Shown: piece after piece, positions 14,750 through 35,017 of the stretch
How positions within the stretch are numbered: the first letter of the stretch is position 1
Layout: every line of letters begins with the position of its first letter
Assembly (NCBI GenBank): GCA_036560705.1
Contig: DATBQR010000054.1
Span: forward strand, 9,711 to 73,710
Length of the DNA: 64,000 nt
Reading direction: 5' to 3'
Source: Burkholderiales bacterium
Lineage (GTDB): Bacteria; Pseudomonadota; Gammaproteobacteria; Burkholderiales; SG8-39
The notes under the pieces: generated by a model
What the model was told of the DNA's origin: nothing
What the model saw: the letters and a program-made list of their open reading frames with translations, nothing else
Databases searched by the model: none
Made by a program: the position numbers and the translations under genes

Positions 14750-16030
14750 ATGGCGATGCGACCCGACACCCGACCGAGACAGCACCGCAGTCCCGCAGCC
14801 CGCTACCCGGGCGTGCGGGCCGCCACCGAACGGCTCATCCAGGGCTTGAGCGCTGAGGACTGCGCGATCCAGTCCATGCCGGACGCGAGCCCCGTCAAGT
14901 GGCACCTCGCGCACACGACCTGGTTTTTCGAGACTTTCGTGCTTGAGCCGAATCTGCGGGGTTACCGTGCCTTCGACCCGGCCTACCGCGTGCTGTTCAA
15001 TTCCTACTACAACGCGGTCGGCGACAGGCACCCGCGCCCCGAACGCGGCATGCTGTCGCGCCCGTCCCTCGTCGACGTGCTCGCCTACCGCCGCCACGTC
15101 GACGAGGCGATGCACGAGCTGCTGGCCGGGGCACCGCTGCCTGCGCCGCTGTCGGCCCTGGTCGACCTGGGCACGCACCATGAGCAGCAGCATCAGGAGC
15201 TGGTCCTGACGGATCTCAAGCACCTGCTGTCGCGCAGTCCGCTGAAGCCGGCCTACCAGAGACCCTGGCCGCTGACGCAGGTCCGCGCGCGGGTGCGCGG
15301 CTGGATCGACTACGCCGGCGGCCCCCACGACGTCGGCTACGACGGCAAAGGATTCTTCTTCGACAACGAAACCCCGCGCCACCGGACCTGGGCCGCACCC
15401 TTCCGGATCGCGACGCATCCCGTCACGCACGGCGATTTCATCGAATTCGTCGAGGACGGCGGCTACCGGCGGCCGGAACTCTGGCTTTCCGCCGGGTGGG
15501 ATACCGTCAACGCGCAGGGCTGGCAGGCGCCGGGCTACTGGGAACGCCGCGACGGCGGCTGGCATACCTTCACGCTGCACGGCATGGCGCCGGTGGATCC
15601 GCACACGCCGGTCTGCCATGTCAGCTTCTACGAGGCCGAGGCATTCGCGCGCTGGGCGGGCGAACGGTTGCCCACCGAGTCCGAGTGGGAAATCGCCGCG
15701 CGCCACGCGCCGGTCGAGGGCAATTTCGTCGAAAGCGGCGCGCTGCATCCTCTCGCGTTGCGCGAATCCTCGGTGGACGGCACGCCGGCGCAGATCTTCG
15801 GCGACGTCTGGGAGTGGACGCGCAGCGACTACGGCCCCTACCCCGGGTTTCGCGCCGCCGAGGGCGCGGTCGGCGAATACAACGGCAAGTTCATGTCGGG
15901 GCAATACGTGCTGCGCGGCGGTTCCTGCGCCACGCCCGCCGACCACGTGCGCGCGAGCTACCGCAACTTCTTCCCGCCGGACGCACGCTGGCAATTCAGC
16001 GGTTTGCGCCTCGCGCGGGATTCGAGCTGA
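14750..16030 (+). CDS. egtB: EgtB-type sulfoxide synthase (DinB_2 + FGE-sulfatase domains; ergothioneine pathway type)
   Basis: 426 aa. The N-terminal DinB-like region (VKWHLAHTTWFFETF, HHEQQHQEL) and the C-terminal FGE-sulfatase region (YEAEAFARWAG, RGGSCATP) match EgtB. AGGAGA RBS is present. Confidence 0.8.
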   Translation: MAMRPDTRPRQHRSPAARYPGVRAATERLIQGLSAEDCAIQSMPDASPVKWHLAHTTWFFETFVLEPNLRGYRAFDPAYRVLFNSYYNAVGDRHPRPERGMLSRPSLVDVLAYRRHVDEAMHELLAGAPLPAPLSALVDLGTHHEQQHQELVLTDLKHLLSRSPLKPAYQRPWPLTQVRARVRGWIDYAGGPHDVGYDGKGFFFDNETPRHRTWAAPFRIATHPVTHGDFIEFVEDGGYRRPELWLSAGWDTVNAQGWQAPGYWERRDGGWHTFTLHGMAPVDPHTPVCHVSFYEAEAFARWAGERLPTESEWEIAARHAPVEGNFVESGALHPLALRESSVDGTPAQIFGDVWEWTRSDYGPYPGFRAAEGAVGEYNGKFMSGQYVLRGGSCATPADHVRASYRNFFPPDARWQFSGLRLARDSS

Positions 16031-16043
16031 GCACCGGCTGAAC

Positions 16044-16433
16044 CTACGCGGTCGCGCGGACGAGGTGCAGCGCGCCCATCAGCGCTGCGATCGACAGCAC
16101 CACCGAGGCGACCATGTAAGCGGCGGCTGGCCCCCAATCGCCGCGCTCCATCAGCACGTAGGCGTCCAGCGAAAACGTCGAGAAGGTAGTAAACCCTCCG
16201 CAAATGCCGACCGTGAGAAACACTCGCGCCGCCTGGGGCAGATTCAGCTTGAGGGCGAACATTTCCACGAAAACGCCGATCAGGAAGGATCCGGCGATGT
16301 TGATGATCAGGGTTCCCCAGGGAAACGCGAGGCCGAAGAGCTTCGTCGCGCCGATGCCGGCCAGGTAGCGCGCCACGGAGCCGAGGGCGCCGCCGGCGGC
16401 GACGGCAAGGATGAGTTGAAGGTTCATCATCAT
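16044..16433 (-). CDS. crcB: fluoride channel CrcB/FluC
   Basis: 129-aa four-TM ORF with GALGSVARY and GFCGGFTTFSTF-type motifs. The ATG overlaps the moaE stop (ATGA). Confidence 0.9.
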   Translation of the reverse strand: MMMNLQLILAVAAGGALGSVARYLAGIGATKLFGLAFPWGTLIINIAGSFLIGVFVEMFALKLNLPQAARVFLTVGICGGFTTFSTFSLDAYVLMERGDWGPAAAYMVASVVLSIAALMGALHLVRATA

Positions 16434-16855
16434 TTCCAGCGCTCCGCCGCCTGGTCGTCCGTCGTCTTCGCTTCCACCCAGCGCGCACCGTCCGGCGTCT
16501 GTTCCTTCTTCCAGAACGGCGCCTGCGTCTTCAGGTAGTCCATGATGAATTCGCAGGCGGCGAAGGCGTCGCCGCGATGGCCGCTCGCCACCGCCACCAT
16601 GACGATCTGGTCGTTGGGCTTGAGCGCGCCGTAGCGGTGGATCACCGTGCAGTCGATCACCTGCCAGCGCGATTTCGCCTCGTCGACGATCTTCCCGATC
16701 GCCCGTTCGGTCATGCCGGGGTAGTGCTCGAGTGTCATGGCGACGTCGCGCACCAGGCCGCTGAAAGTGGCGACGGCGCCGATTTTGGGATTTGCGGAAA
16801 TGGCTTTCACTTCCGCACCCAGATCGAAATCCTCCTGCTGCACCGAGATCTTCAT
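16430..16855 (-). CDS. moaE: molybdopterin synthase catalytic subunit MoaE
   Basis: 141 aa with a MoaE-type sequence (GAVATFSGLVRD, HRGDAFAACEFIMDYLK, PFWKKE). Confidence 0.9.
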   Translation of the reverse strand: MKISVQQEDFDLGAEVKAISANPKIGAVATFSGLVRDVAMTLEHYPGMTERAIGKIVDEAKSRWQVIDCTVIHRYGALKPNDQIVMVAVASGHRGDAFAACEFIMDYLKTQAPFWKKEQTPDGARWVEAKTTDDQAAERWK

Positions 16856-17109
16856 CCGCCGGTCACCGGGGGAAAAAACGCCACTTCGTCGCCTGCCTTC
16901 ACCGCGGCCGTGGGCTGGACCATGTCCTGATTGACGGCCACTCTGAGGAGAATTTTTTCCGAAAAAGAACTTTCAAAAACGCCGCCCCGGCCTCTCAGGT
17001 GGCTGCGCAGCGCAGCGACCGTAGCCACGCCCGCCGGCAGGTCGAGCTCCTCGGCATCCCGGCCCAGTTTTTCGCGCAGGCTCGCAAAGAAGAGAACTTT
17101 CACTTTCAA
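16852..17109 (-). CDS. moaD: molybdopterin synthase sulfur-carrier subunit MoaD
   Basis: 85-aa ubiquitin-like ORF ending in the diagnostic C-terminal Gly-Gly (PPVTGG). It overlaps moaE by 4 nt. Confidence 0.9.
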   Translation of the reverse strand: MKVKVLFFASLREKLGRDAEELDLPAGVATVAALRSHLRGRGGVFESSFSEKILLRVAVNQDMVQPTAAVKAGDEVAFFPPVTGG

Positions 17110-18311
17110 CGGTAGAGCTCCGAATAAGGCAGGAAGCGGACGCGGTCTCCGGTGCGGACCGGCCGGCCGGCCGGATTATCCACCAGCCCGTCGGCCCAGA
17201 CCGTCGAGGTCAGCACCGCGGAATCCTGCGTCGGGTACAGGTCCAGGCCGCCCTCGGCGTTCCATTTCACGCGGAGGAATTCGCGCCGCGGATCGGGCTC
17301 GGGCCAGTCGAAATCGGCGCGCGCGTGGACGACGCGCGGCGCGACGTCGGCGACGCCCTGCGTCTTCAGGAGAAAGGGCCGCACGAAAATGAGGAACGTG
17401 ACGAAGCTCGACACGGGATTCCCCGGAAGGCCGATGAAGGACGCGTTCCCCACCCTGCCGAACGCCAGCGGCCTGCCGGGCTTCATCGCGATCTTCCACA
17501 TCAGCAGCGAGCCTTCTGCTTCCACCGCGGGCTTGACGTGATCCTCGTCCCCCACCGACACGCCGCCGGAAGTGACGATGATGTCGTTCTCGCCCGCGGC
17601 GCGGCGCAGCACTTCGCGCGTCGCCTCCAGTTTGTCCGGCACGATGCCATAGTCGCGCACCTCACAGCCGAACGCGGCAGCGAGGCCGTTCAGCGTGAAG
17701 CGGTTCGAGTTGTAGATGCGGCCCGGCGCGAGCGGCTCGCCCGGCATCACCAGCTCGTCGCCGGTGAAAAACAGGCCCAGCCGCACCTTGCGGTACACCG
17801 GCAGCGTCTTGATGCCGACCGACGCCGCCAGCCCCGTGTCTTGCGGCAGCAGGCGCCTGCCGGCGGCCAGCACCTGGCCGCCCTTGCGGATGTCGCTGCC
17901 GAGGCGACGAATCCATTCGCCGGGCTCGGGCCGCGTCTTTATTTTCACCGCGCCGTCTTCCACTTCGGTGAATTCCTGCATGACGATGGCGTCGGCGCCG
18001 GGCGGCACGGGCGCCCCGGTGAATATGCGCGCCGCCGTGCCCGGCTCCAGCGGCGTGCCCACCGACCCCGCGGGGATACGCTGGGCAATTCTCAATTTCG
18101 CGCTCGAAGCGGAAACATCCGAGCGCCGTATCGCATAGCCGTCCATGGCGCTGTTGTCCATCGGCGGCACGTCCATGGTGGAGGATTGCGCGCGCGCGAG
18201 GACCCGGTTCACCGCCTCGATGGCCGGCACCTGCTCGATCTCCGCGACCGGGCGCGCGCCCGCGAGCAGCGTCTCGAGCGCTTCGTCCACCGAGAGCAGC
18301 CCCTTGTTCAT
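17106..18311 (-). CDS. moeA: molybdopterin molybdenum/tungsten transferase MoeA (paralogue 1)
   Basis: 401 aa with MoeA motifs (DNSAMDGYA, GGVSVGDEDH, PGNPVS). Confidence 0.9.
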   Translation of the reverse strand: MNKGLLSVDEALETLLAGARPVAEIEQVPAIEAVNRVLARAQSSTMDVPPMDNSAMDGYAIRRSDVSASSAKLRIAQRIPAGSVGTPLEPGTAARIFTGAPVPPGADAIVMQEFTEVEDGAVKIKTRPEPGEWIRRLGSDIRKGGQVLAAGRRLLPQDTGLAASVGIKTLPVYRKVRLGLFFTGDELVMPGEPLAPGRIYNSNRFTLNGLAAAFGCEVRDYGIVPDKLEATREVLRRAAGENDIIVTSGGVSVGDEDHVKPAVEAEGSLLMWKIAMKPGRPLAFGRVGNASFIGLPGNPVSSFVTFLIFVRPFLLKTQGVADVAPRVVHARADFDWPEPDPRREFLRVKWNAEGGLDLYPTQDSAVLTSTVWADGLVDNPAGRPVRTGDRVRFLPYSELYR

Positions 18312-18802
18312 GCGAGCCCCAGGTGGCCGAGGATGAAATCGGCGATGGCCTGGTGCGCATTCAGGTCGAGTTGCAGCAGCTTCGTCTCCACGGGGGCGTC
18401 GGTCGCGATGGCGACGATATGCGGATCCTTCGGATGCAGCAAGCCCTCCCCCGTCGCGGCGCGCCAGACCTCGAGCTTCGGAATAGGGGCGAACTTGAAG
18501 CCTTCGACGATCAGCAGGTCGCAGGGGGAGAAATGCCTGATCTGCTCCTCGAAGGCCGGTTCCCGCACGCCGCGCAGTTCGTTCATCAGCACCCAGCGCC
18601 GCGACGAGGTCACCATCACCTCGCTGGCGCCGGCGTGGCGGTGGCGGTACGAATCCTTGCCCGGCACGTCGACGTCGAAACTGTGATGCGCGTGCTTGAT
18701 GAGGGAAACGCGCAGGCCCCGCTTCACGAACAGCGGAATCAGCTTTTCGATGAGCGTCGTCTTGCCGCTGCCGGACCAGCCCGCAAAACCGAAGGTTTTC
18801 AT
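18308..18802 (-). CDS. mobB: molybdopterin-guanine dinucleotide biosynthesis adaptor MobB
   Basis: The internal ATG gives [17 protein letters not shown] (P-loop), then HHSFDVDVPGKDS. The start lies 4 nt after the upstream arsS stop. Confidence 0.85.
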   Translation of the reverse strand: MKTFGFAGWSGSGKTTLIEKLIPLFVKRGLRVSLIKHAHHSFDVDVPGKDSYRHRHAGASEVMVTSSRRWVLMNELRGVREPAFEEQIRHFSPCDLLIVEGFKFAPIPKLEVWRAATGEGLLHPKDPHIVAIATDAPVETKLLQLDLNAHQAIADFILGHLGLA

Positions 18803-18806
18803 TTTT

Positions 18807-19829
18807 CTAGGCGGTGGCGCCGCCGCAGGAACTGCCCGCACCCGCGGTGCAGCCCAGGCAGTGGTCGCCGAATTGTATCGGGCGCCGCAGGGTCCTGCCG
18901 AAATCGAAGTCGAATATCGTCAGCCTCTTGCGCTTCGCGTCCACCGCGTCCATCTCCAGCATCTGGTTGAAGTCGCAGTCGTAGATGCGGCCGTCGTGGC
19001 CGACGCTGATCAGGCTGCGGCACATCACGCCCGCAGCCGCGGCCGGGTTGAAGGCGGCGAGCAGCTTCTCCATGTACGACTCCAGCTGCCCGGTCTTGTC
19101 CAGGTGCAGCTTGAAGCGGTTGATCGGCATGTTGGTGATCGTATACAGGCTGTTGAACGCCAGGCCGAACTTGTCCTTCAGCTCGCGCCTGTAGTCCGCT
19201 TCCAGCCCGGCCTGCGCCGCGGGCAGGTACGGCCCCACCGGGTTGTAGACGAGGTTCAGCAGCAAGCCGCTGCCTTCGACGCCGTAGCCCTCGGCGTTCA
19301 GCCGCCGCATCGCTTCCATGCTCTTCCTGAAAACCCCGGAGCCGCGCTGCGCGTCGGTGAAGTATTCCTGGTAGTACGGCAGCGAGGAAACCACCTCGAC
19401 GCGGTTCCTCGCGAAGAACCGCGGCAGGTATTCCTTGCTTTCCTTCGTGACCGGATGGCCGTCCAGCTGCACCGTCAGGTTGTGGCGCACCATCACGTGC
19501 TTGCCGAGCGCGACGGCCTTCTCGACGAAACCGTCGAAGCCGGGATGCAGCTCGGGCGCGCCGCCGGTGATGTCGAGCCTGGCGATCTGCGGATGCCACT
19601 CGAGGATCTCCAGGCACTTGGCGACGCCCTCGGGCGAGAGCATTTCCCTGCGCTGCGGCCCCGCATCCACGTGGCAGTGGCGGCAGACCTGGTTGCACAG
19701 CTTGGTGACGTTGACCTGCAGCGTGTCGATGGACAGCGGCGGCAGCTCGATGCCGTTGCGGCGCAACTGGTCCTCGAAATCGAATTTGGATTTTTCCTGA
19801 AAAACCCTGATGGGAAGGAGCGCGCTCAC
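18807..19829 (-). CDS. arsS: radical SAM/Cys-rich protein of the arsenosugar-biosynthesis ArsS type
   Basis: This is the C-terminal 340 codons of track ORF 18807..20660. It carries a CNQVCRHC radical-SAM cluster motif and a Cys-rich C-terminus (HCLGCTAGAGSSCGG) typical of the ArsS (seleno)protein family. The GTG start overlaps the stop of the upstream AhpD-like gene (GTGA). Confidence 0.75.
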   Translation of the reverse strand: MSALLPIRVFQEKSKFDFEDQLRRNGIELPPLSIDTLQVNVTKLCNQVCRHCHVDAGPQRREMLSPEGVAKCLEILEWHPQIARLDITGGAPELHPGFDGFVEKAVALGKHVMVRHNLTVQLDGHPVTKESKEYLPRFFARNRVEVVSSLPYYQEYFTDAQRGSGVFRKSMEAMRRLNAEGYGVEGSGLLLNLVYNPVGPYLPAAQAGLEADYRRELKDKFGLAFNSLYTITNMPINRFKLHLDKTGQLESYMEKLLAAFNPAAAAGVMCRSLISVGHDGRIYDCDFNQMLEMDAVDAKRKRLTIFDFDFGRTLRRPIQFGDHCLGCTAGAGSSCGGATA

Positions 19830-20161
19830 AAAACCATTTTCTTGAGGTGATTCTGCATCTGCACCGAATGCACCAGCGTAATCCCGGCCTGCATGACCGC
19901 CGCGACGTGCACCGCCTCCATCATCTGCTCGGGATTGGAGCCGGCCTCCAGGCATTGCGTCGTGTACGCGTCGATGCAGTAGGGGCACTTCTGCGCGTGC
20001 GACACCGCCAGGGCGATGAGCGCCTTCTCGCGTTTGGTCAGCGCGCCGTCGGAGCCCACGACGTCGCCGTAGTACTTGAAGAAATCGTCCGCCAGCTTTT
20101 TCGCGTGCTGGCCGATGTCGCCGAATTTCTTCAGGTCCCCGGACTCGTAGTAATTGCTCAT
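19826..20161 (-). CDS. AhpD/carboxymuconolactone-decarboxylase-like 'peroxidase-like' partner of ArsS
   Basis: 111 aa with an AhpD-fold CxxC (KCPYCIDAY). This family is characteristically adjacent to ArsS-type radical SAM genes. Confidence 0.75.
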   Translation of the reverse strand: MSNYYESGDLKKFGDIGQHAKKLADDFFKYYGDVVGSDGALTKREKALIALAVSHAQKCPYCIDAYTTQCLEAGSNPEQMMEAVHVAAVMQAGITLVHSVQMQNHLKKMVL

Positions 20162-20233
20162 GGATATCCTCGCGCAGGCGGTGGAAAATCAATTGCCCAA
20201 GGATACCTCGTCCCGTGCCCTGCGCGAATTCCG

Positions 20234-20902
20234 CTAGCCCTCCGGCGATCGGGACGGGATCAGCCAGCCGAAGACGGCAACGACGACAAGCGTTGCCGCC
20301 GTTTGAGCTGCGAGGAACCCGACAACGTCTTCCTGCCGGATACCTGCAAAGGTATTGGTAAATTCCCGCGCCATCGTTACCGCCGGATTCGCGAACGACG
20401 TGGAGGCGGTAAACCAATAGGCGCCGGTGATGTACGCGGCAACAGCGTAAGGAATTGCGTCGGAGCGGAAACGAACTCCCGCAAGGATTACTGCAAGCAG
20501 GCCGAATGTGGCGACAAACTCGGCCCAGATCAGGCTCGTTCCCGTTCGAGCCTTGATCGAAAATTCGATCAGCGGCAGTCCGAACATCGCATGCGCCGCC
20601 ACTACCCCCAGGATGGCGCCAACCACCTGAACGATGGAATAGCCAAGAACGTCTTTCCACGCGAGAGCGCCTCGTGCCGCCAGCGCAACGCTCACCGCGG
20701 GATTGAAATGCGCTCCCGAGATAGGGCCGAATGTCAGAATCAACGCGACAAGCGCGGTCCCGGTTGCCAGGGAATTGGCGAGCAGAGTGATCGCCTCATT
20801 CCCGCCGGCCAGACGCTCCCCCATGATTCCCGAACCGACCACGGCCACGAGCAAAAACGCCGTGCCCAGAAATTCGGCAGCGAGACGGCGTGCCAGCGTC
20901 AT
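20234..20902 (-). CDS. aqpS: MIP-family aquaglyceroporin (AqpS-type arsenite channel by context)
   Basis: 222 aa with two NPA boxes (HFNPAVS, FANPAVT) and six TM segments. It sits in an ars operon in place of arsB/acr3. Confidence 0.8.
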   Translation of the reverse strand: MTLARRLAAEFLGTAFLLVAVVGSGIMGERLAGGNEAITLLANSLATGTALVALILTFGPISGAHFNPAVSVALAARGALAWKDVLGYSIVQVVGAILGVVAAHAMFGLPLIEFSIKARTGTSLIWAEFVATFGLLAVILAGVRFRSDAIPYAVAAYITGAYWFTASTSFANPAVTMAREFTNTFAGIRQEDVVGFLAAQTAATLVVVAVFGWLIPSRSPEG

Positions 20903-21399
20903 TTCTCGGCGACGTCCCGCACTTTATTTTGAAGCGAGATGCGATCGAGCCTGTCCAACGGCAGGCTGGCCAAAAGTTCGATGCGGCGGCGGAGCATCAT
21001 GGCAGTGTCGGAAAAGGCCTTGCGGATTTCGTCGTCGGTGCCCTCCGCAGCCGCCGGGTCGGGCATGCCCCAATGCGCCGTCATCGGCTGCCCCGGCCAG
21101 AACGGGCATTGCTCTCCTGCCGCCTGATCGCAGACGGTGACGACAAAATCCATCACCGGCGCGCCGGGTCTGGAGAATTCATCCCAACTCTTGCTGCGTA
21201 GATTTTCGGTCGGAAGATAAGCCTGTCCGAGCAACTCCAACGCAAATGGATTGGGAGACCCCTTGGGGTGGCTCCCGGCGCTGTAGCCGCGGAATCTCCC
21301 TCGCGCAACGGCGAGGCTATTGGTAAGCGCCTCCGCGATGATCGAGCGGGCCGAATTTCCCGTGCAGAGGAACAGTATGTTGAACACCTTCTCCGGCAC
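20899..21399 (-). CDS. arsC: arsenate reductase, low-molecular-weight phosphatase type
   Basis: 166 aa with the LMW-PTP P-loop LCTGNSARS plus downstream Cys residues. The stop overlaps the aqpS start. Confidence 0.85.
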   Translation of the reverse strand: MPEKVFNILFLCTGNSARSIIAEALTNSLAVARGRFRGYSAGSHPKGSPNPFALELLGQAYLPTENLRSKSWDEFSRPGAPVMDFVVTVCDQAAGEQCPFWPGQPMTAHWGMPDPAAAEGTDDEIRKAFSDTAMMLRRRIELLASLPLDRLDRISLQNKVRDVAEK

Positions 21400-21408
21400 G
21401 TCGCCTCC

Positions 21409-21759
21409 TCAGCGTGTCCTGGCTTTTTTGCGGGTCTTCACCCGCGGCACCTCGCAGACAGGCGCGCACGCCGCGCCGCTGCCGCAGCAGTTGTCGGTGA
21501 GAAAACCGACCAGAGTGTTCATTGCGTCGAAGTCGGCAGAGTAAATGAGAGAAGTCCCCTCCCGGCGGCGGACCACGAGCCCGGCGTGCTTGAGCTGCGA
21601 CAAATGGAATGAAAGCGTCGGGGCCGGGAATTTCATTTCCCTACCGATCCGGCCGGCGGACAAACCCTCAGGGCCGGCCTGAACGAGAAGACGGAAGATC
21701 CCGAGCCTCGATTCCTGGGCCATGACTCCCAGGATGGCCACGGCATGCTTAGATTCCAT
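21409..21759 (-). CDS. arsR: ArsR/SmtB-family metalloregulator
   Basis: Winged HTH (ESRLGIFRLL, PTLSFHLSQLKHAGLV) with a Cys-rich C-terminus (NCCGSGAACAPVC). The start is set at the internal ATG (MESKHAV); the track start at 21795 is the alternative. Confidence 0.8.
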   Translation of the reverse strand: MESKHAVAILGVMAQESRLGIFRLLVQAGPEGLSAGRIGREMKFPAPTLSFHLSQLKHAGLVVRRREGTSLIYSADFDAMNTLVGFLTDNCCGSGAACAPVCEVPRVKTRKKARTR

Positions 21760-21779
21760 ATTTCCAATGTTATGGAAAT
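21760..21779. promoter_or_regulatory. perfect 7-6-7 palindrome ATTTCCA-N6-TGGAAAT, candidate ArsR operator
   Basis: An AT-rich perfect inverted repeat immediately 5' of the preferred arsR ATG, in GC-rich surroundings. ArsR-family repressors autoregulate through such dyads. Confidence 0.35.
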
Positions 21780-21979
21780 AGTCGCCGGCGGTCAATGCCT
21801 ATGGCGGAGCCGGGCTCGTTTCGCGCCTGGGGTAGAGTGGCGGGCCTCTGCGTTCCAAAAAGCGCGATATGGCCCTGCGATTTCTTCTACTTGTGTTGCC
21901 GGGCATCTGCTGCTCGGCGCCCGCCGTTGCCCAGCACCATGCCCCCCCTACGCCGGGAAGAATCACGGCGGCTAAGCCG

Positions 21980-22792
21980 CTACTTCTTCGCGTTTGGAAA
22001 AAAGAGTTGCTCGCCGCCGATCTTGTACTCGGCGATCGTTTTCTGGCCCTCCGGCGAGATCACCCAGTCGACGAAAGCCTGGCCCATCTCCTTCTTCACC
22101 AGCGGATGCTTGGCCGGATTCACCAGCATCACGCCGTACTGGTTGAACAGGCGCTGGTCGCCCTCCACTGAAATCACCAGGTCGGCGCGGTTCTTGAACG
22201 ACAGCCATGTGCCGCGGTCGGACAGGATGTAGGCGTTCATGCCGGCTGCGCTGTTCAACGCCGGCCCCATGCCCTGGCCGGTGTCGCGGTACCACGGCCC
22301 CCCGTCTTTCGCGATGTCGATGCCGGCGAGTTTCCACAATTCGAGTTCGGCGAAGTGGGTGCCGCTCTTGTCGCCGCGCGACACGAACGGCGCCTGCGCC
22401 GCCTTGATCTTCTGGAACGCCGCGACGATATCCCGGGTGCCGGCGACCTTGGCCGGATCGGATTTCGGCCCGACCAGCACGAAGTCGTTGTACATCACGT
22501 CGAAGCGCTGCACGCCGAAGCCTTCAGCGAGGAACTTCTCCTCGAGCGGCTTGGCGTGCACGAACACTACGTCCGCGTCGCCGCGCCGGCCGATGTCGAG
22601 CGCCTGGCCGGTGCCCACCGCGACCACGTGCACCTTGATCCCCGTCTTCGCCTCGAACACCGGCAGCAGGTGCTTGAACAGCCCCGACTGCTCGGTCGAC
22701 GTCGTGGAAGCCACGGTGATGAAGCGCTCCTGCGCGCCAATCGAAAAGGAAAAACACAGGCAAAGCGCCAGAAGAAGTCTCGTCAAACCCAC
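21980..22792 (-). CDS. tupA: tungstate ABC transporter substrate-binding protein TupA-type
   Basis: 270 aa with a signal peptide and the TupA-type anion-binding motif region VASTTSTEQSGL, plus SRGDKSGTH. Confidence 0.8.
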   Translation of the reverse strand: MGLTRLLLALCLCFSFSIGAQERFITVASTTSTEQSGLFKHLLPVFEAKTGIKVHVVAVGTGQALDIGRRGDADVVFVHAKPLEEKFLAEGFGVQRFDVMYNDFVLVGPKSDPAKVAGTRDIVAAFQKIKAAQAPFVSRGDKSGTHFAELELWKLAGIDIAKDGGPWYRDTGQGMGPALNSAAGMNAYILSDRGTWLSFKNRADLVISVEGDQRLFNQYGVMLVNPAKHPLVKKEMGQAFVDWVISPEGQKTIAEYKIGGEQLFFPNAKK

Positions 22793-23496
22793 GGCAGTTC
22801 TCCTTTGATGAAGGCCGCGGCTTCCGCCGTGGCCGGCTGCTTGAAGAATTCGTCGACGGGCGCGCGTTCCAGCACGCGTCCCTGGTGCAGGTAGATTACC
22901 TCGTCCCCCAGGCGCCGCGCCTGCCCGAGGTTGTGCGTCGCCATGACGATCTTGGTGCCGGAGGCGTCGAAGGCCTTGATCACGGTCTCGATCTCCCGCG
23001 TGGCGCTCGGGTCCAGGCTCGCCGTCGGTTCATCGAGGAACAATACCTCGGGATGCAGCGCCCAGGCGCGCGCCAGCGCGAGGCGCTGCTGCTCTCCCCC
23101 GGAAAGCACCCTGGCGGGCCGCTCCGCCAGATGCGACAGGCCCACTTCCCGCAGAGCTTCGTCGGCGCGGCGCTCGCGCTCTTTCCCGGCCACTCCGACC
23201 GCCTGCAGCGCGAAGATCACGTTGGCACGCGCCGAGCGGCGCAGCATCACCGGGCGCTGGAAAACCATCGCCTGCTGCCTGCGCACGCGCCCCCGGTCGC
23301 CGTCGTTCCATGCGACAAGTCCCGCCGTGGGCGCAAGCAGGCCGTGCATCAGACGCATCAGCACGCTTTTGCCGGCGCCGTTCGCCCCCAGGATCACCGT
23401 GTTCGGACCGGCGCCGATCTCTAGCGACAACGGCGCGACGATCTCGCGGCCGCCCGCGGCGAACGACACCCGATCCAGCCTGAGCGGAAGAATCAC
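22783..23496 (-). CDS. tupC: ABC transporter ATP-binding protein (TupC-type)
   Basis: Walker A GANGAGKS, signature LSGGEQQR and Walker B LFLDEP. The GTG start overlaps the tupB stop (GTGA). The upstream part of track ORF 22783..24240 is off-frame tupB sequence. Confidence 0.8.
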   Translation of the reverse strand: MILPLRLDRVSFAAGGREIVAPLSLEIGAGPNTVILGANGAGKSVLMRLMHGLLAPTAGLVAWNDGDRGRVRRQQAMVFQRPVMLRRSARANVIFALQAVGVAGKERERRADEALREVGLSHLAERPARVLSGGEQQRLALARAWALHPEVLFLDEPTASLDPSATREIETVIKAFDASGTKIVMATHNLGQARRLGDEVIYLHQGRVLERAPVDEFFKQPATAEAAAFIKGELPWV

Positions 23497-24176
23497 CCGT
23501 ACCTCCGCTGCGCCGCTTGCTTCACCACGTCCGCCGCCGCATTGAGCGCCAGCACGAGCACGATCAGCACGATGCCGAGGCCGAGCGCGAGCGGCAGGTC
23601 GCCTTTCGACGTTTCCAGCGCGATGGTGGTCGTCATCACGCGCGTGACGCCGTCGATGTTGCCGCCGACGATCATCACAGCGCCGACCTCCGCGGAGGCG
23701 CGTCCCAATCCCGCGAGAACCGCGGTGAACAGCGAAAAGCGGATGTCCCAGACCAGAGTCAACGCCGCGGCCATGCCGTCCACGCCGAGCGAGCGCAGCT
23801 GCTCCCCGTATTCGCGCCAGGCGTCTTCCACCGCCTGGCGGCAAAGCGCGGCGATGATCGGCAGGATGAGAATCGTCTGCGCGATCACCATCGCGCCCGG
23901 CGTGAACAGCAGCCCGAGCTTGCCCAACGGCCCGGCGCGCGACAGGAGGAGATAGACCACGAGGCCGACCACCACCGGTGGCAACCCCATCAGTGCGTTC
24001 AGCAGCACGACGAGCGCGTGCCGGCCCGGAAAGCGCGCCACCGCCAGCGCCGCGCCCAGCGGCAGCGCGAGCAGCGTGGCGAGGAACACCGCGCTCAGAC
24101 TCACCTCGAGGCTGAGCGCGACGATATCGAGCAGCTTGCCGTCGAGCGATCCGATCAGAGCGAATGCGCCACGCAA
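23493..24176 (-). CDS. tupB: ABC transporter permease (TupB-type)
   Basis: 227-aa hydrophobic ORF of the binding-protein-dependent permease type. TTG start. Confidence 0.8.
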   Translation of the reverse strand: MRGAFALIGSLDGKLLDIVALSLEVSLSAVFLATLLALPLGAALAVARFPGRHALVVLLNALMGLPPVVVGLVVYLLLSRAGPLGKLGLLFTPGAMVIAQTILILPIIAALCRQAVEDAWREYGEQLRSLGVDGMAAALTLVWDIRFSLFTAVLAGLGRASAEVGAVMIVGGNIDGVTRVMTTTIALETSKGDLPLALGLGIVLIVLVLALNAAADVVKQAAQRRYG

Positions 24177-24230
24177 GGCTTCCGTGATGGCGTTCAGGAT
24201 TCCCTCCTGGAATGTGCCGCCTCATAATAT

Positions 24231-24617
24231 ATGAAGCCAATCCAGGATTTATCCGTCCAGACCATGCGCTACGGCAACAAAACCCTCGGTCCGCGCTTGC
24301 GCCTCACGCTGCGCAAGGGCGTTGCTTTCGGCCCCGGCAAAGCGGATCTGCTGGAAGGCATCCGCGACACGGGGTCGATCGCCGCCGCCGGCCGGCACAT
24401 GAAGATGAGCTACACGCGCGCCTGGGGCCTGGTGAGCGAAATGAACGCGGAATTCCGCGCGCCGCTGGTCGAATCCACCAAGGGCGGGGCCGTGCGCGGG
24501 GGCGCCACCCTGACGCCGCTCGGCGAGGACGTGCTGAAGAGGTACCGGCGCATGGAACGCGGGGCGGCGCGTGCCGTCGCCGTCGATCTCGCCGCGCTGA
24601 AGGAAAAGCTGGCCTAG
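24231..24617 (+). CDS. ModE-like N-terminal HTH regulator (no Mop/TOBE domains)
   Basis: 128 aa with the ModE N-domain pattern (GPGKADLLEGIRDTGSIAAAGRHMKMSYTRAW). It ends before any molybdate-binding di-Mop domain. Confidence 0.7.
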   Translation: MKPIQDLSVQTMRYGNKTLGPRLRLTLRKGVAFGPGKADLLEGIRDTGSIAAAGRHMKMSYTRAWGLVSEMNAEFRAPLVESTKGGAVRGGATLTPLGEDVLKRYRRMERGAARAVAVDLAALKEKLA

Positions 24618-24645
24618 AAAGCGGGTTGCCGCCAGCGCGGTTGTT

Positions 24646-24669
24646 CGATATAGTTAATTGAATATATCG
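24646..24669. promoter_or_regulatory. candidate ModE-type operator upstream of modA
   Basis: CGATATA-N10-TATATCG inverted repeat in an AT-rich patch about 25 nt upstream of the modA ATG. It resembles the TATAT-containing dyads bound by ModE. Confidence 0.5.
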
Positions 24670-24692
24670 GAAATCGAGAGGGTTTCACACCG

Positions 24693-25457
24693 ATGAACGC
24701 CCGCAATTTCTTGGTCGCAACCAGCCTCTTAACTGCAACGTTGTCGGTGACCGGAACAGCGGCAGCGGACGAGGCGCAGATTGCCGTCGCGGCCAACTTC
24801 GCCGCGCCGGTGAAGCAGATCGCCGAAAAATTTTTCCAATCGACGGCACACAAAGTGTTGATCAGCATCGGTTCGACGGGGAAGTTCTATTCCCAGATCA
24901 GCAACGGCGCGCCTTTCGACGTGTTTCTGTCGGCAGATGACGAAACACCGCTGCGCATGGAACGGGAAAAGCTCGCGATAACGGGCACCCGATTCACCTA
25001 TGCCATCGGGAAGCTCGTGTTGTGGAGTCCAGCGGCGAACTTCGTGGACGGCAACGGCGACGTCCTTAGAAAAGAACCCTTCAAACGCCTCGCCATCGCC
25101 AACCCGAAGCTCGCCCCTTACGGCGCAGCCGCGCAGCAAACGCTGGAAAAGATGGGCATCTGGTCTGCATTGCAGGGCAAACTGGTCCTTGGCGAGAACA
25201 TCGCCCAGACGCTGCAGTTCGTCGCCAGCAGCAACGCGGAACTGGGCTTCGTCGCCTTCTCCCAGATCCAGGAAGGCGGGAAGACACCCGCCGGATCCCA
25301 CTGGCTGGTGCCCCAGTCGCTCTATGATCCCATCCGCCAGGACGCGGCGCTGCTCGCCCACGGCAACAGCAATCAAGCGGCGCGCCTGTTCCTCGAATTC
25401 CTTCGCAGCCCTCAAGCCCGGGAGATTATCCGCACGTACGGTTACGACTTGCCGTAA
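24693..25457 (+). CDS. modA: molybdate ABC transporter substrate-binding protein
   Basis: 254 aa with a signal peptide and ModA-like sequence ([26 protein letters not shown]). Confidence 0.9.
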
Positions 25458-25467
25458 CCTTCCGGTC

Positions 25468-26148
25468 ATGGTCCTCGGCGCGCATGACGTTGCCGCCATC
25501 TGGTTGACGCTGCGGCTCGCCACGACGGCTACCGCGCTGCTGCTCCTCTTCGGCACGCCGCTGGCGTGGTGGCTGGCGCGAACGCGCTCGTGGTTGAGAG
25601 GCCCCGTCGGCGCTCTCGTGGCGCTCCCCATCGTGCTGCCCCCGACGGTGCTCGGGTTCTATCTTCTCGTAATGCTGGGACCGGCCGGTCCGGTTGGCGC
25701 GACCATGCGGGCGCTCGGGCTTGACCTGCTGCCGTTTACCTTCGCCGGCCTCGTCATCGCCTCGGTGCTTTATTCAATACCGTTCGTCGTGCAGCCTCTG
25801 CAGTCGGCGTTCGAAGCGATCGGCGACCGTCCGATGGAGGCTGCCGCCACGCTGCGCGCTAGCCCCCTGGATCGTTTCTTCACCGTGGTCCTGCCGCTCG
25901 CGCGGCCGGGAATTCTCAGCGCCATCATCCTCGGCTTCGCGCATACCCTGGGCGAGTTCGGCGTCGTCCTGATGATCGGCGGAAACATTCCGGGCCAGAC
26001 AAAGGTCCTCTCGGTCGCACTGTACGATCATGTCGAGGCTCTGGAGTACGCGCCGGCGCACTGGATTGCCGGCGGCATGCTGCTGTTCTCCTTCGCGGTG
26101 CTCCTGCTCGTGTACGGCTGGGGCCGCGGCCCGCGGGTGGAGCTATGA
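25468..26148 (+). CDS. modB: molybdate ABC transporter permease
   Basis: The internal ATG gives a 226-aa permease ([30 protein letters not shown]). Confidence 0.9.
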
Positions 26149-27215
26149 GCGGTTTGCTTGCCCGGCTGAGGTTGCCGCGCAAGGAATTCACGCTCGACGT
26201 GGACCAGCAGATGCCCGGCCAGGGGATTACGGCTCTGTTCGGCGCTTCGGGATCCGGCAAGACAACCCTGCTTCGATGCATTGCGGGCCTCGAACGGGCT
26301 TCGCAAGGCGTCGTTTCGTTCGACGACGAACGCTGGCAGGACGAGTCGGCGCGCATCTTCGTGCCGCCGCACCGGCGTGCCTGTGGCTACGTTTTCCAGG
26401 AGGCGAGCCTCTTTCCGCACCTGTCGGTTCGTCGCAATCTGGAGTACGGAGAGAAGCGCGTACCTGCCGGGCAAAAGCGCCAAGCTTTCGAGCAGACAGT
26501 TGAACTGCTCGGCATTGCGCCACTGCTTGCCCGGCGTACCGAAAACCTGTCTGGCGGTGAGCGGCAACGCGTTGCGATTGCGCGTGCCTTGCTTACCAGT
26601 CCACGTTTGTTGCTGATGGATGAACCGCTGGCGTCCGTCGACGTGAATCGCAAGGGAGAAATCCTGTACTACATCGAACGGCTGCGAGACGAGCTTCGCC
26701 TGCCGATTGTCTACGTAAGCCATGCGATCGACGAAGTCGTGCGCCTCGCGAACAGAGTAATCGTGCTCGCAAACGGTCGCGTAACCGCCGCAGGCTCAGT
26801 GCAGGACACGATCGGACGGGACCACGGCGGCGCCGTGATCGAAGCGACGGTCGCTGCGCAGGACCTGAAAACGGGCCTCGCGCGCCTCTCCTTCACTGGC
26901 GGCGAACTGCTGGTGGCCGATGTGGATAGCCCAGTGGGCAAAACGCTGCGCGTGCGGCTGCGCGCGCGCGACGTGTCGATCGCGCTGGAACAGCCGCGCA
27001 ACGTCAGCGTGCTCAACTGCCTGGCCGGGCGCATCGTCCAGATCAGCGCCGAACCCGGCTCCAGCGTCGACGTGCGCCTGGATGTCTCCGGCACGCCGGT
27101 CATCGCTCGCATCACGCGCCATTCCGCCGAACGGCTCGGTCTTACGGTCGGCAAGGAGGTCTGGGCGATGGTGAAGGCGGTCTCGCTCGACCGCCACAGC
27201 GTCGGCTATGCTTGA
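26145..27215 (+). CDS. modC: molybdate ABC transporter ATP-binding protein with C-terminal TOBE/Mop domain
   Basis: 356 aa with Walker [18 protein letters not shown] and LLMDEP, plus a C-terminal roughly 120-aa TOBE-like domain. The ATGA overlaps modB. Confidence 0.9.
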
Positions 27216-27234
27216 CCAATTCCGAGGAGAAACC

Positions 27235-27522
27235 ATGCCCGCCTACGTGATCGCCGAAGTGAACGTGACCGACCCGCAGCTCTACGACGAATACAAGAAG
27301 CTCGTGCCCGCAACCGTGGAGAAGTACGGCGGCCGCTTCGCGGTGCGCGGCGGCACGGTCGAATCCAAGGAAGGCGGCTGGAAGCCCGCGCGCATGGTGG
27401 TGCTGGAATTCCCCTCGATGGAAAAGGCGCGCGCCTGGTACCACTCGCCCGAATACGCGCCGGTACTCGCCATGCGCCTCAAGGCCGGCAGCGCGAAACT
27501 GATCCTCGTCGAAGGCGCCTAG
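27235..27522 (+). CDS. DUF1330-family protein
   Basis: [22 protein letters not shown] and the following sequence are typical of DUF1330. Start is at the internal ATG behind GAGGAGA. Confidence 0.75.
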
Positions 27523-27608
27523 GCTCTTGTTTTTGCAGGTTTAGCGGCCATCTTCCCGGCAGAGGGAGGGGTCTTTCGCGCGCCCCCTCCTGTATCATCG
27601 CTAAACCC

Positions 27609-28694
<1,086 letters not shown>

Positions 28695-28701
28695 GGCAAA
28701 G

Positions 28702-29532
28702 ATGCGCCGCCCGCTGCTGACGAACGCCGCCCGGCCCGCCACTTTCGAAGTCGAGGCCACCAACGAGCGCGGCGAAATGGTGCCGACCTCGATCGCCGGC
28801 GAGCATCCGCTCACGCTTTACCTCGACAAGCGGGAGCTCGTCACGCTGATGACGCTCGGCCACGCGCCCGAGGCGCTCGCCATCGGCTTCCTGCGCAACC
28901 AGCGCCTCGTCGCCGGGATCGAGGACATCGATGCCGTGCAGGTGGACTGGGAGACGGACTCCGTCGCCGTCACCACCAACAAGAAATCCGATATCGAAAA
29001 AAAGACCGGCAAGAAAACCGTCACCACCGGCTGCGGCCAGGGCACGGTGTACGGCGATCTCATGGAAGAGATCGACAGCGTCAGGCTGCGCGACGACGTG
29101 GCGCTCGAGGACGCGCAGCTTTTCGTGCTGCTGGAGAAGGTGCGCAGGCACGAAACCATCTACAAGCAGGCCGGCGCGGTGCACGGCTGCGCCCTCGCCA
29201 CGCGCGGGGGCGAGATCCTGATGTTCGTCGAGGATGTCGGCCGGCACAACGCGGTGGACGCCATCGCCGGCTTCATGTGGCTGGACGACATCGACGGTTC
29301 CGACAAGGTCTTCTACACCACCGGCAGGCTCACCTCGGAAATGGTGATCAAATGCGCGCAGATGCGCATCCCGTTCCTGGTGTCGCGCTCGGGGCTGACG
29401 AACATGGGGCACCAGATCGCCGGGCGGGTCGGATTGACGATGATCGGGCGTGCCAGCGGCAGGCATTACCTGGCGTTCACCGGCAAGCAGCGGCTGAAGC
29501 TCACGGCGCCGCAACCGACGGCAATTGTCTAG
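28702..29532 (+). CDS. fdhD: formate dehydrogenase accessory sulfurtransferase FdhD
   Basis: FdhD motifs are present (TTGCGQG, GAVHGCALA, DVGRHNAVD). ATG lies behind GAGG. The track TTG at 28684 is the alternative start. Confidence 0.85.
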   Translation: MRRPLLTNAARPATFEVEATNERGEMVPTSIAGEHPLTLYLDKRELVTLMTLGHAPEALAIGFLRNQRLVAGIEDIDAVQVDWETDSVAVTTNKKSDIEKKTGKKTVTTGCGQGTVYGDLMEEIDSVRLRDDVALEDAQLFVLLEKVRRHETIYKQAGAVHGCALATRGGEILMFVEDVGRHNAVDAIAGFMWLDDIDGSDKVFYTTGRLTSEMVIKCAQMRIPFLVSRSGLTNMGHQIAGRVGLTMIGRASGRHYLAFTGKQRLKLTAPQPTAIV

Positions 29533-32858: not shown

Positions 32859-33464
32859 ATGCTTGAGACCAGCGCACTCGCCTGCGAGCGCGGCGGGCAA
32901 CGCCTGTTTTCCGACCTCGGCTTCGCCCTGGCGCCGGGCGGCCTGCTGCGCGTGCACGGCGCCAACGGCGCCGGCAAAACGACGCTGCTGCGGATTCTCT
33001 CCGGGCTGACGCGCCCCGCGGCCGGCAGCGTGCGCTGGCACGGCAAGGAAGTCGACGACGACTATCGGGCGGAGATGCTGTTCCTTGGACATGCCCCCGC
33101 GCTGAAAGCCGAATTGACCGTGATTGAAAACCTGGAATTCTCGGCGCAGCTCTCGGGCTTGAAAAATTCCGACTGCGGGAAAGCCCTTCAACAGCTCGGC
33201 ATCGAACGGCTCGCCGGCCTGCCGGCCTCCTATCTCTCGCAAGGCCAGCAACGGCGGGCCGCCCTCGCCCGGCTCGCGCTTGCCGCGCACGTTCCGCTGT
33301 GGCTGCTCGACGAGCCGTTCGCGGCGCTGGACGACGGGGCGATCGGGCGGGTGAGCGCGCTTTGCGCCGCCCATCTCGCTGCCGGCGGCATGCTGGTGCT
33401 GACTTCGCACCAGGATGTGCCCGTCGCGGCGCCAACAACGCAGACCGTCGAACTCGAGGGCTGA
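32859..33464 (+). CDS. ccmA: heme exporter ATP-binding protein CcmA
   Basis: 201 aa with GANGAGKTTLLR, LSQGQQRR and WLLDEP. It is the first gene of the ccm operon. Confidence 0.9.
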   Translation: MLETSALACERGGQRLFSDLGFALAPGGLLRVHGANGAGKTTLLRILSGLTRPAAGSVRWHGKEVDDDYRAEMLFLGHAPALKAELTVIENLEFSAQLSGLKNSDCGKALQQLGIERLAGLPASYLSQGQQRRAALARLALAAHVPLWLLDEPFAALDDGAIGRVSALCAAHLAAGGMLVLTSHQDVPVAAPTTQTVELEG

Positions 33465-33469
33465 GCGCC

Positions 33470-34135
33470 GTGCACGGATTCGCTTTGATCGTCCGCCGCG
33501 ACCTGCGCCTCGCGCTGCGCCGCAAGGGCGACGTGCTGAACGTGCTGGTGTTCTTCCTCGTCGTCGCCAGCCTGTTCCCGCTCGGTGTCGGCCCCGAGCC
33601 GGACCAGCTGCGCGCCATGGCGGCGGGCGTGGCGTGGGTCGCCGCGCTGCTCGCCGCGGTGATTTCGCTGCCGCGCCTCTTCGCCGCCGACCTCGCCGAC
33701 GGCACGCTGGAGCAACTGCTGCTCTCGCCGCAGCCCCTGGCGGTCGTCGTGCTGGCGAAAATCGCGGCGCACTGGCTGTGCACCGGGCTGCCGCTCGCGC
33801 TGGTCGCGCCGCTGATCGGCCTGCAATACGGGCTGCCCGCGGACGCGCTGGCCATCCTGCTCGCTTCGCTGCTGCTCGGCACGCCGGTGCTCAGCCTGCT
33901 CGGCGCCGCCGGCGCGGCGCTCACCCTGGGCGTGCGCGGCGCCGGCGCGCTGGCCGGCCTGCTGCTCCTGCCGCTGTACGTGCCCGCTCTGGTTTTCGGC
34001 GCGGGCGCGGTGACGGCAGCGATGAGCGGTCTCGATCCCTCGGCGTACCTGGCGCTGCTCGGCGCGCTTCTTGCGGTATCCTCGCTGGTCGGCCCCTGGG
34101 CCGCGTGCGCCGCGCTTCGGATCGCACTCGATTGA
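33470..34135 (+). CDS. ccmB: heme exporter permease CcmB
   Basis: GTG start, 221-aa hydrophobic ORF (ADLADGTLEQLLLSP). Confidence 0.9.
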   Translation: MHGFALIVRRDLRLALRRKGDVLNVLVFFLVVASLFPLGVGPEPDQLRAMAAGVAWVAALLAAVISLPRLFAADLADGTLEQLLLSPQPLAVVVLAKIAAHWLCTGLPLALVAPLIGLQYGLPADALAILLASLLLGTPVLSLLGAAGAALTLGVRGAGALAGLLLLPLYVPALVFGAGAVTAAMSGLDPSAYLALLGALLAVSSLVGPWAACAALRIALD

Positions 34136-34148
34136 TGAATTCCGGCAG

Positions 34149-34886
34149 ATGAAACCCGACTTGTTCCGCTACGCCGCCCCGCAGGCATTTTTTCCCGTCG
34201 CCGGGAAACTGATCCCGTGGTTTTCGGTCCTAGCTGGCGTGCTCGCGCTCATCGGTCTTTACATTGCGTTTTTCGTCGCGCCCACCGACTTCCAGCAGGG
34301 CGAGGCGTACCGCATCATCTTCATCCACGTGCCCGCCGCCTGGATGTCCATGTTCATCTACCTGGTGATGGCGGGCTGGGCCGGCATGGGCCTCGCGCTG
34401 AACACGCGGCTCTCGGGCATGATGGCCTCGGCGCTGGCGCCCACCGGCGCGATGTTCACCTTCATCGCTCTGTGGAGCGGCGCGCTGTGGGGAAAGCCCA
34501 CCTGGGGCACCTACTGGGTGTGGGATGCGCGGCTCACCTCGGAGCTGATCCTGCTGTTCCTCTACCTCGGCTTCATCGCGCTCAAGGGCGCGATCGCCGA
34601 TCCGGTGCGCGCCGACCGCGCCGGAGCGGTGCTGGCGCTGCTCGGCGCGGTGAACGTGCCGATCATCTACTTCTCGGTACAGTGGTGGAACACGCTGCAC
34701 CAGGGATCGTCGATCAACCTGATGGCCGCGCCGACGATGGCGGCGACCATGCTCGCCGGCATGCTGGTGATGGCGCTGGCGGCATGGATGTACGGCGTCG
34801 CCGCCACGCTCGCGCGCCTGCGCAACATCATCCTCGAGCGCGAGCGCGACGCCGACTGGGTTCGGCTGCAGAGGTCGGCGGCGTGA
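34149..34886 (+). CDS. ccmC: heme exporter/heme lyase component CcmC
   Basis: 245 aa with the WWD motif region ([12 protein letters not shown]) and conserved His residues. Confidence 0.92.
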
Positions 34887-35017
34887 ACTGGGGCGGCGTG
34901 AACGAGTTCCTCGCGATGGGAGGCTACGGCTTCTATGTTTGGGGTTCGTACGGGGTCGCCGCCCTGTGTATTTTTCTGGAAATTTTCTTTCTGAGAAGCA
35001 AAAGACAAAAATCATGA
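34883..35017 (+). CDS. ccmD: heme exporter small subunit CcmD
   Basis: 44-aa single-TM ORF. The sequence [19 protein letters not shown] matches the CcmD core. GTGA overlaps ccmC and ATGA overlaps ccmE. Confidence 0.7.

Follow-up and report, generated by a model that had tools for sequence, protein, structure and literature searches.

The locus described here raises the question of which substrate an ArsS-type member of the radical S-adenosylmethionine (SAM) enzymes acts on when ars genes lie upstream of it and no arsM is found nearby. It is located in a stretch of 64,000 nucleotides from a Burkholderiales bacterium (lineage SG8-39; GenBank assembly GCA_036560705.1, contig DATBQR010000054.1, positions 9,711 to 73,710 of the forward strand), which as a whole is called the window in the following. 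An original prediction, made from the sequence without database searches, had described arsR, arsC, an aqpS-type aquaglyceroporin gene, a gene for an AhpD-like protein (ahpD) and arsS as one ars operon and had considered the substrate, arsenic or another metalloid, to be unclear. All five genes were found on the minus strand at the coordinates proposed (Table 1). From our analysis it appears rather probable that ahpD and arsS encode a genuine ArsS/AhpD pair, which acts on a trivalent, likely methylated, arsenical and stands beside a recently inserted ars cassette, the absence of arsM being normal.

The identity of both proteins was examined with curated profiles. The radical SAM protein scored 399.9 bits against TIGR04167 (cut-off 300) and covered positions 6-302 of the 303 profile positions; Pfam assigned a Radical_SAM and a DUF3641 domain to it, the latter with 175.5 bits. 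The AhpD-like protein reached 167.8 bits against TIGR04169, the arsenosugar biosynthesis-associated peroxidase-like protein (cut-off 120). Because both proteins exceed the curated equivalog cut-offs, they are by their sequences a genuine ArsS and AhpD-like pair and ordinary members of known families, which agrees with the identities originally proposed. Furthermore, the radical SAM protein falls inside the ArsS clade of a neighbor-joining tree of 170 sequences, a distance tree without bootstrap support, in which the clade of the window ArsS is nested beside ArsM-adjacent members. The translational coupling of the two genes suggested earlier is visible in the sequence, the GTG start of arsS overlapping the TGA stop of ahpD (GTGA). 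Products of 340 aa (ArsS) and 111 aa (AhpD-like) were obtained identically in independent gene calls, with five metagenome contigs of the same population carrying the whole gene; in three shorter metagenome contigs the radical SAM gene is cut at the contig end.

The window ArsS contains both the motif CNQVCRHC and the stretch CLGCTAGAGSSCGG. Its CX3CX2C motif corresponds to C45/C49/C52 and its GSSC motif is located at C335. In an alignment of 50 diverse ArsS members, which are 35-58% identical, C45/C49/C52, C270, C285, C324 and C327 were invariant, and the window protein carries the consensus residue at each of the 50 columns with a conservation of 90% or more; for the alignment of 170 sequences the corresponding count was 102 of 103. 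With 0.362 its root-to-tip distance is typical (median 0.368). The AlphaFold model of the window ArsS has a predicted local distance difference test (pLDDT) score of 95.3. Its nearest solved folds in Foldseek are SPASM/twitch radical SAM enzymes, with a template modeling (TM) score of about 0.5, and a sequence search returned no solved ArsS structure, giving a weak match to the radical SAM core alone. The best structural matches, SkfB, SuiB, EpeE, BlsE and DesII (Foldseek E 3e-12 to 1e-8), share the Cys-rich C-terminal extension; however, they are just 11-17% identical in sequence and act on peptides or sugars, not on arsenicals. With 473 representatives at 50% identity (E <= 1e-30), the TIGR04167 family is a large one. 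In the set of species-representative genomes the closest relative is only 70-73% identical, and homologues of at least 80% identity are abundant in Burkholderiales metagenome bins.

With SsArsS of Synechocystis sp. PCC 6803 the window ArsS shares the TIGR04167 equivalog assignment, the Radical_SAM and DUF3641 domains, CX3CX2C, the invariant C-terminal Cys residues and GSSC. The cyanobacterial enzyme, the only one for which ArsS activity is known, adenosylates dimethylarsenite (DMAs(III)) to DDMAA (5'-deoxy-5'-dimethylarsinoyl-adenosine; PMC13598754; bioRxiv 10.64898/2026.04.29.721666). Its gene is co-transcribed with arsM (bioRxiv 10.1101/2022.09.23.509062), whereas no arsM is located within 74 kb here and neither TIGR04282, TIGR04283 nor purine nucleoside phosphorylase (PNP) is found nearby. 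Unlike Synechocystis, the host of the window is an uncultured, heterotrophic member of the Burkholderiales, in which arsS is followed by genes of molybdenum cofactor (Moco) biosynthesis. From the arsenosugar set of NCBIfam (TIGR04167, TIGR04169, TIGR04282, TIGR04283 and NF038099, AsSugarArsM) two of five members are present, namely the ArsS-TIGR04169 pair with its typical 4-nt overlap. The arsinothricin enzyme ArsL is comparable in that it forms a C-As bond on trivalent arsenic by radical SAM chemistry and is encoded in ars clusters (PMC8552651; bioRxiv 10.64898/2026.04.29.721666), but it belongs to a family unrelated to ArsS and the window protein gave no match to the ArsL family.

In order to evaluate the absence of arsM, a hidden Markov model (HMM) of ArsM was made from the methyltransferase part of proteins in which ArsS and ArsM are fused. 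Neither the 64 kb of the window nor the 10 kb adjoining on the right gave a match (best E = 1.1-1.6, noise). Regular-expression scans for class-I methyltransferase motif I were negative for all six frames and for the gene calls, and no methyltransferase appeared in Pfam and NCBIfam scans and gene lists, which took in the majority of the called genes but not every one. TIGR04282, TIGR04283 and PNP were likewise not found in the window or the flank. The original prediction was thus right that the window lacks arsM, and an arsM just outside it, which had been considered at the time, did not turn up on the right flank within the 10 kb searched.

For comparison, a census of 160 diverse ArsS loci was made in which the neighbors were scored by HMMs, with seeds validated by NCBIfam as ArsM/AsSugarArsM, as TIGR04282 and TIGR04283 arsenosugar biosynthesis glycosyltransferases and as PNP. 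Flanks of 8 kb or more on each side were available for 47 loci; among these, the AhpD partner was found in 35, TIGR04282 in 19, TIGR04283 in 16, ArsM in 11 and PNP in 6; over the entire census ArsM was adjacent in 33/160 loci. The bare AhpD and ArsS pair, with no ArsM, glycosyltransferase or PNP nearby, was the commonest layout (27 of the 76 loci with flanks of at least 3 kb). Since ArsM accompanies ArsS in 11/47 loci only and the bare pair prevails, a context without arsM in cis is the majority state. The missing arsM is the usual state of the family and no peculiarity of this locus, so that the doubt on the substrate that had originally been attached to it is not supported.

Evidently, the family as such is tied to arsenic methylation, since seven of its ten long members are ArsS-ArsM (Methyltransf_31) fusions, in either domain order. 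These seven proteins (P0139, P0153, P0167, P0173, P0188, P0208 and P0266; 630-707 aa) constitute a Rosetta-stone link between ArsS and ArsM; the three other long members (P0145, P0158 and P0218) have N-terminal extensions of 340-420 aa to which no family was assigned. Loci with adjacent ArsM are spread over the entire ArsS tree, and in the nearest outgroups of the window clade (L015, L097, L098 and L099; ArsS 62-70% identical) arsM directly adjoins. No alignment column parts ArsM-linked (n = 33) from unlinked (n = 60) ArsS by a residue frequency of more than 0.30, and the window ArsS does not diverge at conserved or candidate specificity positions. The same chemistry is therefore to be expected with or without a neighboring arsM, as far as the aligned residues can tell. 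The idea of a neofunctionalized pair-only ArsS was rejected, as no discriminating column was found. In about nine loci a membrane protein lies by ArsS or ArsM (directly downstream of ArsS in, e.g., L020, L037, L120 and L147), which was judged from sequence alone to be a PiT/PHO4-type phosphate transporter; if so, it would be a possible entry route of arsenate for the pathway.

The AhpD-like gene lies directly upstream of arsS on the same strand in 122 of the 160 loci, and the pairing occurs far more often than by chance. The CPYC motif is present in 65 of 67 members of the partner family. Furthermore, fusions of ArsM and AhpD exist as selenoproteins (NCBIfam NF041537), supporting the proposed role of the CPYC partner as a dithiol carrier or reductant.

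The history of the three ars genes turned out to differ from that of ahpD and arsS. Homology to the DNA of close relatives (blastn) breaks off at window position 21984, where tupA stops, and is found again from 20210 on; the intervening 1.77 kb are exactly arsR-arsC-aqpS, and this segment is the sole part of the region from 15.9 to 24.4 kb without DNA homology to close relatives. The G+C content at third codon positions (GC3) of the cassette is 0.68-0.74 versus 0.86-0.91 for tupA, ahpD, arsS and mobB. In the relatives the slot between tupA and ahpD (L009 8897-9643; L092 8379-9581; L095 2013-2148) is taken by a TauE-family permease, in some cases together with a regulator, by a secreted metallo-beta-lactamase-fold protein or by just 136 bp. 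The nine closest relatives have no ars genes at their ArsS loci, arsR-arsC-aqpS occupying the slot in the window lineage only. In the census ars genes were rare beside ArsS, a homologue of the low-molecular-weight protein tyrosine phosphatase (LMW-PTP) type ArsC being near ArsS in just 2/160 other loci. Judging by where the homology breaks off, by the contrast in GC3 and by the changing content of the slot, arsR-arsC-aqpS is a recent horizontal insertion beside a resident ahpD-arsS unit; it is no ancestral ars operon, and the first interpretation as an ars operon carrying ArsS is not supported.

The cassette itself resembles the arsR-arsC-aqpS-arsH operons of rhizobia, with which it is collinear. 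Its arsR is 42% identical to ArsR of a Sinorhizobium meliloti plasmid ars operon, including an aligned CC...C motif, arsC is 56% identical to the annotated ArsC of the S. meliloti plasmid arsR-arsC-aqpS-arsH operon, and aqpS is 54-58% identical to the MIP genes within such operons (54% for the S. meliloti plasmid, 58% for a Microvirga plasmid). Against TIGR02691 arsC scored under the cut-off. The ArsR C-terminus NCCGSGAAC has Cys residues at n, n+1 and n+7, a spacing which matches that of the Cys triad defining the type-2 As(III) site of AfArsR (PMC11868830). AqpS is described as the channel that lets out the As(III) made by ArsC (PMC6205960). Unlike the S. meliloti operon, the window has the resident ahpD-arsS-mobB unit after aqpS, and its cassette, with its low GC3, was inserted into the chromosome of a member of the Burkholderiales; arsH is not next after aqpS and was not found among the window genes scanned against Pfam and NCBIfam, which were not every gene. 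On other contigs arsR is called from an ATG at 21759, giving a product of 116 aa.

From 16.0 to 21.8 kb the window consists of tightly packed, co-oriented minus-strand genes, arsR through crcB. The aqpS start overlaps the arsC stop by 4 nt, aqpS and ahpD are separated by a gap of 72 nt, and the mobB ATG lies 4 nt past the arsS stop, whereupon moeA, moaD, moaE and crcB continue the unit with a 4-nt overlap each with the preceding gene. This run of Moco genes starting directly after arsS had been overlooked in the original prediction. A terminator-like hairpin is located directly after the tupA stop (21980-21968), and no terminator-like site was found anywhere from arsR to crcB. Because no terminator lies in between, the ars promoter now probably reads through into ahpD-arsS. 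On insertion 49 nt of ancestral sequence 5' of ahpD were kept, and an alignment of the upstream regions of the relatives revealed no recognizable conserved promoter or operator 5' of ahpD.

Taken by orthology, the window ArsS would cleave SAM reductively at the [4Fe-4S] cluster bound by CX3CX2C, and the resulting 5'-deoxyadenosyl radical would add to the lone pair of an arsenical in the trivalent and most likely methylated state under formation of a C-As bond, comparable to the conversion of DMAs(III) into DDMAA. With respect to the fold resemblance, an auxiliary cluster is probably bound by the four invariant Cys residues of the DUF3641 domain, which is twitch/SPASM-like. The arsenical itself is probably handled by the cysteine of GSSC, a position at which rare relatives have selenocysteine (Sec). 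The translationally coupled CPYC partner of the AhpD fold would most likely be a dithiol which holds the arsenical, or hands it over, in a trivalent, thiol-bound state, or else a reductant. The ars cassette would contribute arsenate reduction and a channel conducting As(III) or methylarsenite, its transcription presumably continuing into ahpD-arsS, and the methylated substrate may be supplied by an unlinked arsM or consist of methylarsenicals that neighboring organisms make and that enter through AqpS.

The surroundings which the pair shares with its relatives consist of molybdenum and tungsten (Mo/W) genes. In all nine close relatives (L009-L011, L092-L096 and L102; ArsS 77-91% identical) the order tupB-tupA-[slot]-ahpD-arsS-mobB-moeA-moaD-moaE was found as far as the contigs reach, and the pair is a conserved core unit of the lineage. 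There, mobB begins 4-16 nt past arsS and is kept in all relatives whose contig extends downstream; in the longer contigs crcB, egtB and clpB come next after moaE. In the window the Mo/W island around the pair extends from 16430 to 29532 and includes mobB-moeA-moaD-moaE, tupA, an open reading frame (ORF) for an ABC ATPase, and tupB. Moco genes near ArsS are absent in all of the roughly 150 other loci, the association being seen only in relatives whose ArsS is at least 77% identical, and in the sister clade (ArsS about 72% identical) ahpD-arsS follows groESL-rpsT or lies beside arsM. Since no more than this one shallow clade shows the association with Moco genes and the sister group differs, we consider the association inherited synteny, in which co-transcription with the pair is likely and a functional link unproven. 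As a side observation, L013 (6738-10987) and L014 (3157-7139) contain a bare ahpD-arsS after ORFs with the look of groES-groEL and rpsT and have no arsenic or Moco genes.

Several points weigh against the interpretation as an arsenical-modifying pair beside an ars cassette. arsM, the arsenosugar glycosyltransferase and PNP are all without a match in the window and its right flank of 10 kb, and the source of methylated arsenic for the window ArsS is thus unproven. The sole conserved context in the window clade is formed by Moco and tungstate genes, not by arsenic genes, and the role of the AhpD-like protein in arsenic chemistry is a putative one. With phylogeny ignored, loci in which ArsM adjoins have the AhpD partner somewhat less often (odds ratio 0.23, Fisher p = 0.03, n = 76); given this negative association, the partner may stand in for something that ArsM supplies. 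Co-transcription of the cassette with ahpD-arsS is indicated by the 72-nt gap and the absent predicted terminator, and the adjacency of ArsS and ars genes, seen in a single lineage, could be a coincidence. The last point leads to the possibility that a self-contained arsenate-resistance cassette just landed in a permissive slot and that ahpD-arsS-mobB-moeA-moaDE is expressed independently of arsenic, which we regard as unlikely, if still worth reckoning with. A slot filled with unrelated genes or with nothing in the relatives, the rarity of ars genes beside ArsS, the restriction of the insertion to one lineage and the retained ancestral sequence 5' of ahpD all fit such an incidental juxtaposition; on the other hand, a short gap without a predicted terminator argues for read-through, and since the documented chemistry of the ArsS family is that of arsenic, an ars cassette landing at this very place is at least suggestive. 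Moreover, this explanation disputes the read-through and the functional link only, leaving the identity and chemistry of ArsS untouched, and its probability is not exclusive of that given for the preferred interpretation. More doubtful is an ArsS that works without any ArsM, in a genome devoid of arsM, and adenosylates As(III) or methylarsenite (MAs(III)) directly to a non-methylated product of the 5'-deoxy-5'-arsenoadenosine type. That a C-As bond can be formed on inorganic As(III) by radical chemistry is shown by ArsL (PMC8552651), the neighboring cassette makes and channels inorganic As(III), and the 74 kb without arsM as well as the roughly three quarters of well-flanked family loci lacking it in cis agree with the proposal. 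However, ArsM fusions and adjacency pervade the whole tree including the immediate outgroups, and the sequences bear no signature by which ArsM-linked and unlinked enzymes could be told apart. Soil bacteria commonly possess arsM, and an unlinked arsM is therefore the simpler explanation. An extended version, improbable in a slightly higher degree, would make the bare AhpD and ArsS pair, the family's majority form, independent of a cognate ArsM through adenosylation of neighbors' methylarsenicals taken up via AqpS or of As(III) from ArsC; heterotrophic Burkholderiales of soil and water would then be an unrecognized source of adenosyl- or ribosyl-arsenicals, and co-transcription with mobB-moeA-moaDE would serve to shield dithiolene-cofactor synthesis from thiol-reactive trivalent arsenic.

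The constant Mo/W neighborhood could also mean that the pair serves Mo/W cofactor metabolism in the window clade, for example by protecting or processing the dithiolene cofactor or Mo/W species. The gene order kept in all nine close relatives, with mobB at such a short distance from arsS, and the surrounding 14 kb with tupABC, modE, modABC, moaA and fdhD would be in line with this, yet other proteins of these relatives are 70-90% identical as well, so that plain inherited synteny is possible. Together with the many loci free of Moco genes, the different location of the pair in the sister clade and the retention of every family-conserved residue in the window ArsS, this renders a cofactor role very improbable. 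Least credible of all is selenium or another metalloid as the substrate, which the original prediction had brought up by reference to the word (seleno)protein in the family name and to a selenosugar pathway. The selenosugar/selenoneine cluster does exist, as senA, senB, selD and mnmH were found about 31 kb away; nevertheless, unrelated genes, among them ccm, ABC transporter and MFS, part it from the pair over about 31 kb, senB occurs at no other ArsS locus and selD at 3/160. In the name of the family the word alludes to Sec-containing variants of the enzyme, which are rare, e.g. a Geobacter protein (PMC13188914). The GSSC position is Cys, never TGA, in all 162 of the 162 sequences that could be assessed, and the Cys of the window copy, originally taken as informative, is thus what every sampled member has. 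Consequently, the selenium link was rejected: the selenoneine cluster is real but unlinked to the ArsS pair.

Table 1. Coordinates of the ars cassette, the ahpD-arsS pair and further features of the window.
Feature	Position	Strand	Basis or remark
crcB	16044-16433	minus	
moaE	16430-16855	minus	
moaD	16852-17109	minus	
moeA	17106-18311	minus	same unit as mobB
mobB	18308-18802	minus	NCBIfam scan and gene calls; conserved arrangement in relatives
arsS, radical SAM/DUF3641, 340 aa	18807-19829	minus	TIGR04167; GTG start
AhpD-fold CPYC protein, 111 aa	19826-20161	minus	Pfam CMD; TIGR04169
aqpS-type aquaglyceroporin	20234-20902	minus	Pfam MIP; two NPA motifs
arsC, LMW-PTP-type arsenate reductase	20899-21399	minus	Pfam LMWPc; CTGNSARS P-loop
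arsR, ArsR/SmtB repressor	21409-21795	minus	HTH_20/ArsR family
Inserted segment with arsR-arsC-aqpS	20211-21983	no strand	blastn break-points and GC3
tupA-like tungstate-binding protein	21980-22792	minus	upstream border of conserved synteny
ModE-like regulator	24231-24617		part of Mo/W island
modA	24693-25457		next come two ORFs, taken for modB/modC by their translations, to 27215
moaA	27609-28694		Mo/W island, after DUF1330
fdhD	28684-29532		Mo/W island
selD/senC	50893-51942	minus	complete selenoneine cluster
senA	51952-53019	minus	454 bits vs cut-off 420
senB	53037-54029	plus	399 bits vs cut-off 300
mnmH, tRNA 2-selenouridine synthase	54582-55640	plus	adjoins selenoneine cluster

Beyond the features in Table 1, the window contains a second EgtB-type sulfoxide synthase gene at 14750-16030 on the plus strand, divergent from crcB where the arsS-Moco unit ends, whose product scored 586 bits against EgtB (cut-off 360) and 375 against SenA (cut-off 420); thereby synthases of the ergothioneine type and of the selenoneine type both occur in the genome within 40 kb. 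An ordinary ccm operon (33299-39500) lies between the Mo/W island and the remaining genes, with ccmB, ccmC, ccmE and ccmF covered by the scan, putative ccmG/ccmH and then a CycH-like gene, and a second moeA paralogue is located at 40105-41367.

If the interpretation as a genuine ArsS/AhpD pair beside an inserted cassette is right, the locus adds little in itself, the NCBI annotation rules already naming both proteins; its context is slightly unusual and recently assembled. The missing arsM becomes a question for the whole family, about three quarters of the well-flanked loci having no arsM in cis. Because ArsS has been characterized only in a cyanobacterium with a co-transcribed arsM, it is fair to ask what the pair-only enzymes act on, and this substrate together with the role of the AhpD-like partner matters for arsenic biogeochemistry at the level of the family rather than of this locus. 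The lineage nevertheless offers a natural experiment: a resident ahpD-arsS newly placed downstream of an ArsR-controlled arsC-aqpS could serve for asking whether ArsS activity is induced by arsenic.

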